DNA of 64,000 nucleotides from the IMG/VR virus record IMGVR_UViG_3300033076_001012, positions 25,028 to 89,027 of that record. One strand, written 5' to 3'. Position numbers and translations under genes: made by a program. Under the pieces are notes generated by a model that was not told the origin of the DNA, searched no databases, and saw only the letters and a program-made list of their open reading frames with translations. Source of the stretch: a virus. Lineage: Duplodnaviria > Caudoviricetes. Position 1 is the stretch's first letter. Every line of letters begins with the position of its first letter. Positions 38,618-60,817 of this stretch are shown piece after piece.

Positions 38618-40639
38618 GTGGCAAACCTCTACGAAATTCCTGCGGAATATGTACCGATAGATACATATGCTCCACTACCTTTTGATGATTTGCTTAGAGC
38701 AGGTCAATTAAGAAAGAAAAATGAGGATGATCTAATATCCGGTATTAAAGTTTTAGATAGAGATATAAAATATGCTCCTTGGAGAGAACAGAGAGCAATA
38801 AATCTTCAAACTGACATACATAATAAAGTTGATGATTTAGCTAATCAAACCTTTCAAAAAAAGAATTTTTCTGATGCAAGAAAACAAGCTCAAACTCTAG
38901 GGAGAAAATTGCATGAAGATTTCCAATTTGGAGAACCTGCTAAATTGCAAACAGAACATGATAGATGGGTTAATAGACAAAAGGAATTTAATGATGCACT
39001 AGAAGCTAATAGAAAAAATCCTGATAAACCAGGAGGTTTAACCCCAATGGATGTTAGATTATTGCAAGAAGAAGATATGGATAATGTGAATCCTGATTCT
39101 CCTTATGATAGTTATAATCCCCAACCTTTTGTTACAAATCCAGGTATACAAACTGAGATACAAAAGATTGCTAAAGAAATGCCAGCATGGTCAGAAGATA
39201 AAATAGGTAAATGGGCATCTACTCATGGACTTCCTTCTGATAAACTTCAAAGTTTTATTACATCTGTTAAAGAAAAAAAGTTTGATGTAATGGAACCTAT
39301 ACTTACTAATTATATATTAAACAATCCTGATTGGCAAGCTTATTTAAGTCAACAAGCAAGATTATATTCCAGAAAAGTAGATCCAGACAGATTAACAAGT
39401 ATTGATCCAAATATTGTGGATAAATTATCAAGAGCTTATCCTGAATTAGATCAGAACTCTCCTGAGTTTCAAACATTACTCGCAAGAGAACAAGCGAAAA
39501 AAGAATTACCTTTTCAGTTAGCTTCTACAATAGCTAGAAACGCAGCGTCTACTAATATAGTAAAAGATGTTGATGTTAAAAGAGATATTGTTACAGATGA
39601 AGCAGAGTCTGAAAGAAGGAAAAATCCAGAACCTTCTGTTGTACCGTATTATGAAACACCTTCTTTAACAATTAAAGGAGTTGAGTATGAAGGTACGTTT
39701 ACACAAAAAGAAAAAGGAGAGTTTATAGGAAATGCTTTAACAAAAGAGGAATATGATAAACTATCTCCTGCGGAGAAGATGAAAAGACAAGGAAATTATA
39801 CATCTCCTGATGAAAAATCCTTCTCAAAAGAAAAAGGTTATTTACAACCCAATGAGATTCCTCAAAAGAAATATGAACTTGCTAAAGGAGTATTATCTCT
39901 TCTAAAAGATTCTCCAGAATATGCTTCTATATTTAATAAATGGAACAATAAAGAAAATTTAACAAAAGAAGAAGCTGATAAAATTTATCCAATGTTAGAT
40001 GAGATTGAAAAACAAGCTTCAGAAAATAAAATGTTTAATGCTCAATCTGTGGAGTTTACTCCTGAGGAAAGAAAAGTTGTTAACGGTGGATTATTTGGAT
40101 ATAATTCACAAGGTATAAGTAAAGAAACAGTTGTTAAAAATTTAGGAACAGGAAGCTCTGGAAATGTTAAATTTTTAGACGAGAATGGTGAAACTCTTTC
40201 TCTAAAACAACTTAAAGAAAATCATTCAGAAGATGCTGCTGTTGAAGTAAATGGTAAATTTAAGGCAGAAAACGTCTTTCCTCTATTAGCAGGAGGTGAT
40301 AAATCCTTCCAAGTACCAACACAACTGTTTATTGAAGGAAAACAGTATATTGTTTCTGGACCAGAAGGATATTTAGATGCTAAAACAAAAAGTCCTTACA
40401 ATGAAGCAAATATAAACTATCAAAGAGATAAAGTTGTAAATGCAATATATCAAGCAAAAGCCTCACCCATTCCTTTAAATATGAGAATACATGGTGTTGA
40501 AACAATTACAGGATTTGATAAAAAAGATAATACTTTCAATTTAAAAATAGGAAATGTTAATAAAAAATTCAATACCGCAAAAGAAGCTGAGAATTATATT
40601 TTTGAAATGAAAGAAATATTAGCCAATAGTAAAAAATAA
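38618..40639 (+). CDS. ejected cargo protein
   Basis: GTG start; Y.P...Y.PLPFD.L N-terminus; lies between cargo and RNAP genes. Confidence 0.65.
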   Translation: MANLYEIPAEYVPIDTYAPLPFDDLLRAGQLRKKNEDDLISGIKVLDRDIKYAPWREQRAINLQTDIHNKVDDLANQTFQKKNFSDARKQAQTLGRKLHEDFQFGEPAKLQTEHDRWVNRQKEFNDALEANRKNPDKPGGLTPMDVRLLQEEDMDNVNPDSPYDSYNPQPFVTNPGIQTEIQKIAKEMPAWSEDKIGKWASTHGLPSDKLQSFITSVKEKKFDVMEPILTNYILNNPDWQAYLSQQARLYSRKVDPDRLTSIDPNIVDKLSRAYPELDQNSPEFQTLLAREQAKKELPFQLASTIARNAASTNIVKDVDVKRDIVTDEAESERRKNPEPSVVPYYETPSLTIKGVEYEGTFTQKEKGEFIGNALTKEEYDKLSPAEKMKRQGNYTSPDEKSFSKEKGYLQPNEIPQKKYELAKGVLSLLKDSPEYASIFNKWNNKENLTKEEADKIYPMLDEIEKQASENKMFNAQSVEFTPEERKVVNGGLFGYNSQGISKETVVKNLGTGSSGNVKFLDENGETLSLKQLKENHSEDAAVEVNGKFKAENVFPLLAGGDKSFQVPTQLFIEGKQYIVSGPEGYLDAKTKSPYNEANINYQRDKVVNAIYQAKASPIPLNMRIHGVETITGFDKKDNTFNLKIGNVNKKFNTAKEAENYIFEMKEILANSKK

Positions 40640-56254: not shown

Positions 56255-56336
56255 TAATAAGTACATTCACTGTTCCAATTCAGATTGTAATAGTTAGAAG
56301 AATTATAAACTAACTCACTACTAGAACTAATAGAAA
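56255..56336 (-). repeat. DGR template repeat TR3
   Basis: 82-nt match to 56444..56525; 19 mismatches, all at TR adenines. Confidence 0.95.
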
Positions 56337-56364: not shown

Positions 56365-56766
56365 CTAATAATTGTTATCTCTTAGATTTTGATACTCTTT
56401 AATAAAATTCTCGCCAACAAAAGTAGCTATTTCAGAAGTTTTATAAAAAGCACATCCACCGACCCAACACAGAAAGAAATAGCCAGAAGAAATATAAACC
56501 AACCCACCACCAGAACCAATAGAAAAATGCGGAAAATATTTATATTCATTAGTATTTTTCCAATTTGGTTTCCATCCTTGATTAAAATATTTTTCAATTT
56601 GTTTAATTACTCTATAAGGACAACTAAATTGAGGTTCATTTAATCTCCTGCAAACTTCTTTATATGTAGTGCAAGTAAATATATCTTCACCATTTATAAT
56701 ATCTTTTAAGGCATCTACTTCTTTTTGTAGATCATTTAATTTATCTTGTGCTTGTTTTTTATTCAT
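56365..56766 (-). CDS. DGR target protein 3
   Basis: N-terminal coiled coil, W.PNW.N...YKY.P.F, VR3 near the C-terminus. Confidence 0.92.
   Translation of the reverse strand: MNKKQAQDKLNDLQKEVDALKDIINGEDIFTCTTYKEVCRRLNEPQFSCPYRVIKQIEKYFNQGWKPNWKNTNEYKYFPHFSIGSGGGLVYISSGYFFLCWVGGCAFYKTSEIATFVGENFIKEYQNLRDNNY
56444..56525 (-). repeat. DGR variable repeat VR3
   Basis: Encodes SIGSGGGLVYISSGYFFLCWVGGCAF; differs from TR3 only at adenines. Confidence 0.95.
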
Positions 56767-56914: not shown

Positions 56915-56986
56915 ATAGTAAAAACTAAGTGGATAGTTAGAGTTAGAATAATAGTTATTCACGTAATTCAAAGACTACCTATACTT
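56915..56986 (-). repeat. DGR template repeat TR2
   Basis: 72-nt match to 57085..57156; 18 mismatches, all at TR adenines. Confidence 0.95.
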
Positions 56987-57012
56987 TAGTTATAATATAC
57001 TATCCTACTAGT

Positions 57013-57441
57013 TTATTCTTCTAGCCAAGAATTATATAAAGTTAAAAATTGTTTAGCTATATACTCAGCAGATTTTTTATTTTTAAAGTAAAAACCAAGC
57101 GGAAAGATAGAGAAAGAATAATAGCCACCCACGCAATACAAAGACCACCCAGACCGTTTATTAAATTCAAAATATGGAATATATTTGTATTCATTATAAT
57201 TACCAAAATTGGGTTTCCATTCTTTGTTTTCATTATCAATAAAATTAACAGCTTTGATAATAGTTTTTAATTGTTCACTAAAAGAAGTAATGTTATAAAA
57301 TTCTATCCCTAATACTTTACAAGCATCTCTTAAACTTTTAATATCCTCTACTTTATATTCAGGAGCATTTATTATTTCTTTTAACTTATCGACTTCATAT
57401 TGTAAATCCTGTAATTTCTTTTGGGCTTCTGTTTTATTCAT
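57013..57441 (-). CDS. DGR target protein 2 (start MNKTEAQKK at 57441)
   Basis: ATG 4 nt after the RT stop; paralog of targets 1 and 3; VR2. Confidence 0.92.
   Translation of the reverse strand: MNKTEAQKKLQDLQYEVDKLKEIINAPEYKVEDIKSLRDACKVLGIEFYNITSFSEQLKTIIKAVNFIDNENKEWKPNFGNYNEYKYIPYFEFNKRSGWSLYCVGGYYSFSIFPLGFYFKNKKSAEYIAKQFLTLYNSWLEE
57085..57156 (-). repeat. DGR variable repeat VR2
   Basis: Encodes RSGWSLYCVGGYYSFSIFPLGFYF; differs from TR2 only at adenines. Confidence 0.95.
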
Positions 57442-57445
57442 AAAT

Positions 57446-58387
57446 TTATGTTTTAATATATTTGTTTTTAAGATTGATACCGTTACAATGATTAATCCAG
57501 CCATTATAACTAGCAATAGATTTATTATTCTTATTATATTTAATCATTTTAATGAAATTCTTTTTAATTGTTTTTCTAAGTTTAATATGTGTAGAATAAC
57601 TCACATAACCAACAAAATCTATTCCTCTATTTTTGATGGGAAATATTTGATAATTACTTAATTCTAATTTTAGATTATACCAAAGATAATTTTTTATATT
57701 ATTTAATATAATTCTTAATTCATTCTTATCATTACCTAATATAACTATATCATCGCAATATCTAAAATATTTAAGTTTTAATTCTTCTTTAATCCAATGA
57801 TCAAAATAAGTTAGATAAAAATTAGCAAAGAATTGTGAACAATAATTACCTATTGGTAAACCAACATTACTATCTATTATTTCAAATATTAAATTAAGTA
57901 AATTTCTATCTTTAAATTTTCTTAATAACAATTTTTTTAATATTTCATTATTAATAGAAGGATAGAATTTCTTTATATCTAATTTCAAACAGTATTCATA
58001 ATTTTTAACATCCTTATTTAAATCTTTTAAACAAAGATGTATACCTCTCTTTTTAATACATGAATAAGTTTGTTTTATAAAACATTTTAAAAATATAGGT
58101 TCTAATATATTTAATATTGCATGATGACATATCCTATCAGGATAATAAGGAAGTCTATATATTTCTCTTATTTTACCTTTTTCTTTAACTTTAAAAATAG
58201 TATAATTAGAGGTTTTATAAGATTTATTTAATAAAACATGATGTAAATTAATTAAAAGATCTTCTTTATTTCTATCAAATTTCCTTACACCATGTTGTTT
58301 AGACTTACCCTTTCTTGCCTTTTTTTCAGCTAATTTAATATTACCAATGCTACAAACTTGTTGATATAGATTACCTACTCTTTTCAT
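57446..58387 (-). CDS. DGR reverse transcriptase (313 aa from MKRVGNLY)
   Basis: LPYYPDRICHHAI, LKLDIKKFYPSI, GLPIGNYCSQ (DGR-type GxxxSQ), YFRYCDD, GIDFVGY. Confidence 0.96.
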   Translation of the reverse strand: MKRVGNLYQQVCSIGNIKLAEKKARKGKSKQHGVRKFDRNKEDLLINLHHVLLNKSYKTSNYTIFKVKEKGKIREIYRLPYYPDRICHHAILNILEPIFLKCFIKQTYSCIKKRGIHLCLKDLNKDVKNYEYCLKLDIKKFYPSINNEILKKLLLRKFKDRNLLNLIFEIIDSNVGLPIGNYCSQFFANFYLTYFDHWIKEELKLKYFRYCDDIVILGNDKNELRIILNNIKNYLWYNLKLELSNYQIFPIKNRGIDFVGYVSYSTHIKLRKTIKKNFIKMIKYNKNNKSIASYNGWINHCNGINLKNKYIKT

Positions 58388-58394
58388 AGTCTTT

Positions 58395-58470
58395 ACAATT
58401 AACACTTTTTCCACAATTAAGGTACTAAAGTATTTGTAAATATTCTGTTGTTTTTTGGCAATAGCCAAAG
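58395..58470 (-). ncRNA. DGR spacer 1 (structured RNA between TR1 and RT)
   Basis: TTGGC-TATT-GCCAA hairpin, then AATACT-TTAGTA...GAAAA-AGTGTT. Confidence 0.7.
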
Positions 58471-58498
58471 TTAATAATAGATTTATAAAGTAAAGAAA

Positions 58499-58564
58499 AG
58501 TAGACTCATTTGAATTAGAATTCCAGTTATTATCATAATGGAAAGACTAACTAGAGCTAGAATT
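58499..58564 (-). repeat. DGR template repeat TR1
   Basis: 66-nt match to 58659..58724; 15 mismatches, all at TR adenines; begins inside the target-1 stop codon. Confidence 0.95.
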
Positions 58565-59027
58565 AATTATTAACTTGATAAGAAAAATAATCTATATAAA
58601 TATGATTAAACTTTTTACAAGCATCTTGTAATAAATTATCTGCTTTAAAATGTTGACAAGCAGACCCACGTGAACTAGAAGTCCAGCCACTACCACAATG
58701 GAAAGACCAACCAGAGCCAGAACTAAATTTATAATAAGGTATATACTTATATATACTTGAATTATTCCAATCTAAAATAGTTTTTTCATTATAAGCTTGT
58801 ACTATTTTAGGGATAAGAGAACACGCATTTAAATATCTTTCTCTTTTATTTTTAGTATTTAAAGGAAAAATAATATAATCATTTATATCTTCTTCTAATA
58901 CATCAAAAACATCTTCTAAAGTTTGAATTCTATCTATTATATCTTCAGGAGAATTTATAATTTTTTCAAGTTTATCAATTTCTTTTTGTAAATTTTTTAT
59001 TTGCTTTTTAGCTTCTTCTTTTTTCAT
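58563..59027 (-). CDS. DGR target protein 1
   Basis: MKKEEAKKQIKNLQKEIDKLEKIIN N-terminus, DWNN...YKY.PY, VR1. Confidence 0.92.
   Translation of the reverse strand: MKKEEAKKQIKNLQKEIDKLEKIINSPEDIIDRIQTLEDVFDVLEEDINDYIIFPLNTKNKRERYLNACSLIPKIVQAYNEKTILDWNNSSIYKYIPYYKFSSGSGWSFHCGSGWTSSSRGSACQHFKADNLLQDACKKFNHIYIDYFSYQVNN
58659..58724 (-). repeat. DGR variable repeat VR1
   Basis: Encodes SSGSGWSFHCGSGWTSSSRGSA; differs from TR1 only at adenines. Confidence 0.95.
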
Positions 59028-59061: not shown

Positions 59062-59460
59062 TTAATAATTTATTACTTTAGCAAAACCTTCCTTTACAAG
59101 TTGTTCATTTAAACAAATTTCTTGACCTTTTGAATCAATATAGTATATTTTAGCTAAATATCTACCATATTTTTCTCTAATATCCTGAAAGGATTCTACC
59201 TTAATTTGAGAATTAAGTGGTATAATCTCAGCAACTTTTAATCTTATAGAAAATCCTTGTTTTTTGGAAGAACCTTTTATTTCAGGAGTATTTATTCCAA
59301 ATAACCTGAACACTTGTAAAACATATGTTTTAAAACCTAAATCTACTAATATCTCAAGAGTATCTCCATCTATAATTTGAGATATACTACATCCTTCATA
59401 AATTCTGGGTCTTTTAGGATGAATAGGAAAAGTAATGTTTTTATCAATTTTTTTACTCAT
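59062..59460 (-). CDS. thermonuclease (SNase-like) family protein
   Basis: IIDGDT...VDLGF......RL.GINTPE...EKYGRYLA.IY...LNE.LVKEG.A. Confidence 0.9.
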   Translation of the reverse strand: MSKKIDKNITFPIHPKRPRIYEGCSISQIIDGDTLEILVDLGFKTYVLQVFRLFGINTPEIKGSSKKQGFSIRLKVAEIIPLNSQIKVESFQDIREKYGRYLAKIYYIDSKGQEICLNEQLVKEGFAKVINY

Positions 59461-60034: not shown

Positions 60035-60817
60035 TTATTTTTTCAAATAAGCTTTTAGACTTGTTTGAAAGAATATTCCACAAGATGAACATTGCATCCT
60101 TTTTTTAATTGCTCCTGTTGCAGATATTCTATTACCATTACTGATAGTAGAATCTGAACCGCATTTAGGACAAGAACAATCATCTTTACCTTTTAATATA
60201 CCAATATGGATTTTAGGTTTGCTATAAAAAGAAAGTTTATTATATACTTTTTCAAGCAATAAAACATCTCTTTTACAATAATGAACCATTTTCTTCATAG
60301 CATTTTCATCGTTATTTAAAACAATGTTTTTCCATAAATCATATCCTGTTTTTAATTTACCGCCAAATCCAAAGAATTTAGCAATATAGTCAAGTCTGTT
60401 ACTATTAAATTTAAATAATTTTCTACTTATTTTTAATGTATCCACACTTACAAATTCAGGTAGTGATTTAACTCCATGATACAGCGCTCTGGTTCTCAAC
60501 CATTTAATGTCAAAATGATCTCCGTTATGAGCAACTATTTCATCAGCTGTATTTAAGATTTTTACAAAATCTAAAACCATTTGTTTATCATCACCTTTTG
60601 ACCATTCAAAACTATGAACTTTAGATTCATGTTCCCATTTATAACAAATGCAGATTATTGCTCTCTCTTTCAATATACTATCATGTGTTATATTTAAATC
60701 TCTACCAACATTCCATGTAAAAACTACATTTGGTGATGTTTCAATGTCAATAAATAACCTTTTTATGTTTTGTTTAGAAAGCTTCTTTTTTAAAGCTTTC
60801 TGCATTTTAATATTCAT
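60035..60817 (-). CDS. RNase H-like 3'-5' exonuclease with C-terminal Zn ribbon
   Basis: FIDIETS, VAHNGD.FD, YC..DV.LLE, CPKCGS...CSSCG. Confidence 0.88.
   Translation of the reverse strand: MNIKMQKALKKKLSKQNIKRLFIDIETSPNVVFTWNVGRDLNITHDSILKERAIICICYKWEHESKVHSFEWSKGDDKQMVLDFVKILNTADEIVAHNGDHFDIKWLRTRALYHGVKSLPEFVSVDTLKISRKLFKFNSNRLDYIAKFFGFGGKLKTGYDLWKNIVLNNDENAMKKMVHYCKRDVLLLEKVYNKLSFYSKPKIHIGILKGKDDCSCPKCGSDSTISNGNRISATGAIKKRMQCSSCGIFFQTSLKAYLKK

Follow-up and report, generated by a model that had tools for sequence, protein, structure and literature searches.

Stop codons in the template repeats of a crAss-like phage retroelement as probable cryptic tryptophan codons

We analysed 64,000 nucleotides (nt) of the phage record IMGVR_UViG_3300033076_001012 (hereafter the window), which carry a diversity-generating retroelement (DGR). 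Two of its three template repeats, TR1 and TR2, hold an in-frame TAG stop codon at a position where the corresponding variable repeats, VR1 and VR2, have a Trp codon. It is probable, from comparison of related elements, that these stops function as cryptic Trp codons. In the clade to which the reverse transcriptase (RT) of this element belongs, a template adenine followed by guanine (5'-AG-3') is found as G in the VR almost always, and adenines in other contexts yield the usual mixture of bases. The published view is that DGR templates avoid stops: templates built from AAY codons cannot write them, and template adenines are simply 'randomised'. Here, in contrast, a whole lineage keeps template stops at a scaffold Trp. 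What is new is the AG-to-GG rule, which would turn a stop in the TR into one fixed sense codon. We found no paper that discusses either natural TRs with internal stop codons or a rule specific to AG.

RESULTS

Template stops face Trp codons in the target reading frames

An earlier note on this DNA, made from the sequence alone, had reported TAG codons in TR1 and TR2 opposite Trp codons. Direct reading of both pairs bears this out. The features concerned are as follows (aa, amino acids; ORF, open reading frame; pLDDT, predicted local distance difference test).

58563..59027, minus strand: T1, target gene, 154 aa, with VR1 near the C-terminus (ORF list and translation; its relatives lie upstream of related RTs)
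58659..58727, minus strand: VR1, with Trp codon TGG at 58707-58709 (69 nt in register with TR1, differing only at TR adenines)
58499..58567, minus strand: TR1, starting inside the final codons of T1, with in-register TAG at 58547-58549 (direct reading and alignment)
57013..57441, minus strand: T2, target gene, 142 aa (ORF list; AlphaFold model with pLDDT 92.6)
57085..57156, minus strand: VR2, with Trp codon TGG at 57145-57147 (adenine-blind repeat search and alignment)
56915..56986, minus strand: TR2, with in-register TAG at 56975-56977 (direct reading and alignment)

AGT-TAG-TCT in TR1 is in register with GGT-TGG-TCT in VR1, and AGG-TAG-TCT in TR2 with GGG-TGG-TCT in VR2; each register matches the frame in which the target ORF, T1 or T2, is read. 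Adenines on the 5' side of both TAGs are also altered, some of them to C or T (ATT to TTT in TR1; AAG to CGG and TAT to TCT in TR2). Each TAG therefore lies inside the transferred, mutagenised tract.

A template adenine before G is written as G

To define the outcome at each template adenine, we scanned 284 related loci and, adding the three pairs of the window, obtained 353 clean, unique TR/VR pairs, in which each TR adenine was compared with its VR base and the results were sorted by the TR base 3' of the adenine. The same pipeline was applied to a control set of 65 Brt-like TR/VR pairs from 57 loci of bacterial and archaeal genomes. The VR outcome in the clade depends strongly on the 3' base:

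Clade, A before G, all sites: n = 740, G 94.5%, A kept 3.2%
Clade, A before G, 4-fold synonymous sites: n = 141, G 94.3%, A kept 2.8%
Clade, A before A: n = 2055, G 29%, A kept 25%
Clade, A before T: n = 1644, G 20%, A kept 40%
Clade, A before C: n = 2016, G 37%, A kept 47%
Brt-like control, A before G, all sites: n = 88, G 20%, A kept 73%
Brt-like control, A before G, synonymous sites: n = 21, G 29%, A kept 71%

Synonymous AG sites in the clade thus show the same G rate as all AG sites, on which ground protein-level selection was rejected as the sole cause. Sorting the synonymous sites by 9-nt context (TCA G, GCA G, GGA G, GTA G, CTA G, CGA G) gave 56 distinct contexts, in 53 of which most VRs have G, and the rule applies equally to short-VR and long-VR families. 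In the variable core, AG became G at 26 of 29 synonymous sites, and the flanks reach 97-98% G. Both forms of template stop described below fit the rule, as the adenine of TAG precedes G and in each TGA case the next codon begins with G. Out-of-frame T-A-G trinucleotides gave G 44 times, A three times and C once, and TG-A-G gave G in 13 of 14 cases. Within the window itself all 14 AG adenines were written as G, against 21 of the 55 other adenines (Fisher p = 2.4e-5). A more general rule of copying the 3' neighbour was dropped: nearly all of its signal at A before T stems from a single 3'-end column, CTA TGC.

The Brt-like control behaves in the opposite way, with A before G the best-kept context (73%, against 3% in the window's clade) and no stops inside the TR tracts of its 65 pairs. 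Because A before G is mostly kept there, the rule is specific to the window's RT clade and not general to DGRs. At 4-fold synonymous sites in any context, the clade keeps the TR adenine in ~3-20% of cases compared with 44-80% in Brt-like pairs, and its RT seems, on this comparison, to be much more error-prone at adenines generally.

The template stop is conserved among relatives

The window RT is most similar to RTs of Crassvirales records, and hundreds of relatives, sharing ~55-70% identity with it, occur in IMG/VR and metagenomes. Nearly all of these relatives have between one and three small paralogous targets just upstream of the TR and RT; in most, one TR serves two or three VRs and Phe occupies the Trp column. 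Separate cassettes flanking the RT on both sides, as in the window, occur in the closest relatives, the loci L001, L003/L004, L006/L009, L071, L145, L162 and L163; for several of these the contig is 63 to 103 kb long.

Among the closest relatives, a VR Trp at this column always faces a TR stop. The stop is TAG in L001, L003 (twice), L145 (twice), L162 and L163, and TGA, in every case followed by G, in L009, L071 and the second cassette of L001. More distant long-VR families with the same Gly-Trp motif have TAG (L153, L177, L179, L183, L186, L233) mixed with TGG. Two further stop candidates, in L210 and L136, were rejected as frame or 3'-end artefacts, and L082 was left out of the counts since its TGA opposite Trp lies at the extreme edge of the repeat, beside a non-adenine mismatch.

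The earlier note had named TGG in orthologous TRs as the sign of a recent decay of the templates. The orthologues instead retain the stop, as TAG or as TGA before G, and recent decay is rejected on this conservation, which extends to crAssphage LMMB. The TR stop is, from its distribution, old and has arisen repeatedly, in some TRs at the first G of TGG and in others at the second. The part of the earlier note's simpler alternative that stands is the G-to-A change itself: A for G is common at GG dinucleotides, at 47% overall and 76% at AT-rich loci, as an old and tolerated state.

Around 20 VR outcomes opposite a TR stop at a Trp column were available, and all are TGG except one. In L145, a soil metagenome locus with a window-like layout, the second target ORF ends at a TAG exactly at this codon. 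Faithful copying of the adenine does, on this evidence, occur and truncate the target, as the earlier note had expected, but it is rare. In this OFF allele (L145:1822-2124, 2239-2341) the adenines on both sides of the TAG are freshly changed and the remaining VR is in frame.

Searches for sister strains of the window phage found none: T1 had no tblastn match in phage records or IMG/VR, the exact TR1 core was absent from IMG/VR, and a metagenome scan returned only RTs of no more than 63% identity. For the locus with the closest RT (L002, 69%), whose contig begins 78 nt before the RT, no TR was found.

DISCUSSION

A cryptic codon and what it would cost

If AG is rewritten to GG almost without fail, a TR may hold A where the protein needs G at little cost. 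Gly GGY could be spelled AGY, CGG could be spelled CAG and Trp TGG could be spelled TAG, or TGA when G follows. At the TAG of TR1 or TR2, retrohoming would be predicted to yield TGG in ~92-95% of events, to keep TAG in ~3-6% and to give Leu or Ser in ~2%, and a kept TAG would cut the target short where its variable region starts. Were the rule a property of the RT, the enzyme would add C opposite the A just after adding C opposite the G. The A-for-G state would be nearly neutral, and the source of adenines in place of TR guanines at the sites that tolerate them is probably AT-biased mutation; we propose this because A is the sole change in the TR that still yields G. About 47% of VR GG dinucleotides inside the tracts are spelled AG in the TR, rising to 76% in loci of 20-30% GC, and the AG share falls with locus GC (Spearman rho = -0.33, p = 7e-6). 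In the window, 14 of 17 VR GG dinucleotides are AG in the TR.

Several observations weigh against this interpretation. GC-richer loci still spell 47% of these dinucleotides with AG, so AT pressure alone is insufficient, and the central Trp column of a large sister family is TGG in 156 of 156 TRs, unlike what strict neutrality would give. Together these imply that some cost or other constraint remains. All rates come from assembled consensus sequences after selection, and not from complementary DNA (cDNA) or reads, and since the pairs share ancestry, independent events are fewer than the counts suggest. The high G content of the flanks (97-98%) may have been enriched by selection for Gly, Trp or Arg, or by a homology requirement of cDNA integration. 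Finally, crAssphage LMMB retains A at two AG sites near the 3' end of its TR.

Alternative explanations

The earlier note had suggested that the stop might act as a frequent stochastic switch, or as a filter that keeps only heavily mutagenised products. Neither is needed to explain the TAG, and neither fits easily with the ~94% G at synonymous AG adenines, from which one would expect only a few percent of events to truncate the target. In a programmed ON/OFF switch the TR stop would itself be selected: a rewrite could shut off one of the three paralogous targets, and another could later restore it. That orthologous and paralogous TRs both retain a stop, either TAG or TGA, would suit such a device, as would the natural OFF allele of L145 with its otherwise intact VR. 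We nevertheless regard a switch as unlikely, given an expected OFF rate of only ~3-6% per event, a stop in just one of ~20 observed outcomes, the mixture of TAG and TGG at this column in related long-VR families and the presence of A for G at ~47% of all GG dinucleotides, including synonymous sites that could switch nothing. In the filter, the adenine would be randomised like any other and the stop, Ser and Leu variants then lost, so that the TAG would discard most products. The column is indeed a conserved hydrophobic position in a predicted beta strand (Phe in 55, Leu in 22 and Trp in 10 of 90 relatives), and the flank AG sites are slightly more G-rich than those of the core. However, synonymous AG sites lie beyond the reach of protein selection and still show 94% G and 3% A, and Leu is tolerated at the column in 22 relatives, yet TTG is never found opposite TAG. 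This makes a filter quite improbable.

An origin of the rule before or after reverse transcription, either by A-to-I editing of the TR RNA at AG or by biased repair or integration favouring the old VR G, appears similarly improbable to us. The pattern is strongest in the flanks, where the cDNA must anneal to the target, and sequence data do not separate synthesis from later steps. Set against this, no deaminase gene was seen in the cassette by Pfam or PHROG, and relatives share just the targets, the TR and the RT. The rule also holds in the variable core, and a repair bias by which a site once G stays G for ever predicts G at other adenines as well, and those are only ~30% G. It has also to be considered that the 5' part of the TR is hardly or never transferred, with the TAG a frozen and harmless G-to-A change in a decaying template. 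The 5' limit of transfer is imprecise in the prototype element of phage BPP-1 (Wu et al. 2018), and A for G is commoner in AT-rich loci. The changes to adenines 5' of each TAG, C and T among them, speak against non-transfer, as do the L145 VR, which carries the TAG with fresh changes on both sides, and the flanks, which have accumulated no non-adenine differences. We therefore rejected it, as very improbable: the 5' end, whose lack of transfer the earlier note had named as a possible refutation, is transferred.

Least likely of all, to the point of being negligible, is that the phage reads TAG as an amino acid, so that a TAG in the VR would be no stop. Amber (TAG) recoding is known in several crAss-like lineages (PMC12386605). 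The window, however, is densely covered by ORFs under table 11, with ORFs of up to 3524 aa all open. TAG terminates 4 of its 52 ORFs of at least 100 codons, including T3 at a length that fits its family, and reading through TAG adds little coding density. No tRNA with a CUA anticodon was found by ARAGORN in the 89-kb genome, the only calls being a tRNA-Thr and one doubtful one. Recoding, which the earlier note had listed as a possible refutation, was rejected on these grounds. The doubtful ARAGORN call (G000:C1:24041-24133, minus strand, outside the window) has a four-base anticodon (gagg) and is probably spurious.

Implications of a cryptic Trp codon

Beyond the two TAGs, the comparisons incline us, somewhat, to a broader proposal: that this is an Avd-less lineage with a second, near-deterministic layer of mutagenesis, in which AG would be written as G more than 90% of the time, scaffold Gly, Arg and Trp would be spelled with adenines (TAG and TGA included) and rare faithful copying would provide a low-rate off state. 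We lean to a like degree towards a lineage that takes in crAss-like phages and many environmental phages, for which naive translation of the TR would misread its content. The sequence record suggests how a template stop could be afforded, namely that in one dinucleotide context the outcome is a fixed base. In a Brt-like element, most products of a TR with TAG would be truncated.

If the rule proves to be a property of the RT, it would be a natural case of context-programmed, directional A-to-G writing by a reverse transcriptase. The reading of TRs for DGR diversity would also change, with about half of the 'mutable' adenines next to G not really variable, and engineers of DGR-based mutagenesis would have a lineage whose error rules are very unlike those of BPP-1. 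Not all TR stops met in genome scans should be taken for ON/OFF switches, and the case here shows a context rule accounting for at least some of them.

Comparison with known DGRs

The prototype element of BPP-1 (mtd-avd-TR-brt) resembles the one described here in its adenine-specific mutagenic retrohoming from a TR to a C-terminal VR. There, too, the misincorporated base depends mainly on the template base 3' of the A, and A-to-G dominates outside AAC/AC contexts (PMC12875486; bioRxiv 10.1101/2025.08.18.670894). BPP-1 differs in that it needs Avd, uses AAC codons in a TR that has no stop, and copies ~69% of adenines faithfully (PMC12875486).

A closer parallel is crAssphage LMMB (MT006214.1 58617-65465; PMC7290462), another crAss-like phage with an Avd-less target-VR-TR-RT order, whose RT shows ~65% nucleotide identity to that of the window over ~790 nt. 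Nearly all of its TR adenines are changed, seven of nine AG adenines being written as G, and its TR has TGA GTT opposite TGG GTT in the VR, again TGA before G facing Trp. The stop in LMMB lies at a central Trp, whereas that of the window lies at a 5' Gly-Trp column, and LMMB has one TR and a single 486-aa tail-collar fibre target, compared with three cassettes and small targets of unmatched fold in the window. The text of the LMMB paper contains no mention of a stop codon (PMC7290462). Its authors place that DGR in lineage 3 of Wu et al. (target-TR-RT, no avd, CLec3-class VR) (PMC7290462), and cassette 1 of the window shares with this lineage the target-VR-TR-RT order without avd. Avd-less lineages as such are known, avd being present in most but not all DGRs.

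Locus anatomy

The window is the final 64 kb of an 89-kb single-contig phage genome with a GC content of ~30%. Its source is a gut-type crAss-like phage, and it has the long virion-gene ORFs typical of such phages; the longest ORF has 3524 aa. All DGR features are on the minus strand, within the stretch from 56.2 to 59.0 kb of the window, and form an Avd-less DGR of one RT and three cassettes, each in the order target-VR-TR. The features additional to those given above are:

57446..58387, minus strand: DGR RT, 313 aa, with motifs IGNYCSQ (residues 179-185) and YCDD (210-213) (Pfam RVT_1, 2e-17; phrog_1423, 6e-105)
56365..56766, minus strand: T3, target gene, 133 aa, terminating at TAG (ORF list and translation)
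56446..56523, minus strand: VR3, with Leu TTG (56500-56502) at the Trp column of T1 and T2 (adenine-blind repeat search and alignment)
56257..56334, minus strand: TR3, cognate template of T3, with TTA (56311-56313) at the homologous column (adenine-blind repeat search and alignment)

The adenine-blind repeat search located three cognate TR/VR pairs and not two. The third paralog, which the earlier note had described as an orphan with Trp at this column, in fact owns TR3, pairing with VR3, and has Leu there. TR3 differs from VR3 at 19 of 24 adenines and nowhere else, and its tract has no in-register stop. Over the three tracts (219 nt) there is no mismatch at a non-adenine, and 53 of 69 TR adenines are changed: 35 to G, 14 to T and 4 to C, with 16 kept. 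As only adenines mismatch across the 219 nt, the pairs are genuine TR/VR pairs of a DGR rather than repeats arisen by chance. The RT is of DGR type, and each VR sits inside a coding gene, in the C-terminal third of its target ORF.

Cassette 1 has the order T1-VR1-TR1-RT, and cassettes 2 and 3 lie downstream of the RT. No Pfam or PHROG match to Avd was found among the ORFs adjoining the cassette, and in relatives the targets and the RT have no ORF between them. An ORF resembling staphylococcal nuclease (SNase; 59062-59460; 1.5e-8) immediately precedes T1 on the same strand, and farther upstream (60035-60817) lies a 3'-5' exonuclease/RNase H-like ORF that carries a zinc ribbon at its C-terminus.

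Target proteins

The targets T1-T3 are small (133-154 aa), helical towards the N-terminus, with a beta hairpin and the variable loop at the C-terminal end; Pfam and PHROGs gave nothing informative for them. The AlphaFold model of T2, built with 90 family members, is confident (pLDDT 92.6), and places the predicted Gly98-Trp99 at the opening of the second strand of the hairpin that precedes the variable loop. As Phe, Leu or Trp fills the Trp column in 87 of the 90 relatives, this is a scaffold position. The model has no clear match in the PDB (best Foldseek E ~1; best VIA-align Z 4.5), and a C-type-lectin fold was not confirmed.

A T2 homologue (33% identity) is encoded by the crAss-like phage cr115_1 (NC_055898.1) at 39833-40222, ~58 kb from the RT of that phage (98378-99400), and may be a DGR target, either remote or former. 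Fixed non-adenine differences mark the 3' end in the large sister family (L010, L017, L057, L064 and others), with CTG in the TR and CTT in the VR, and many TRs of this family have a stop (TAA, TGA or TAG) just past the 'LC' codons, where the VRs have Phe. This pattern probably reflects a boundary of the IMH/IMH* kind (initiation of mutagenic homing), outside the mutagenised tract.

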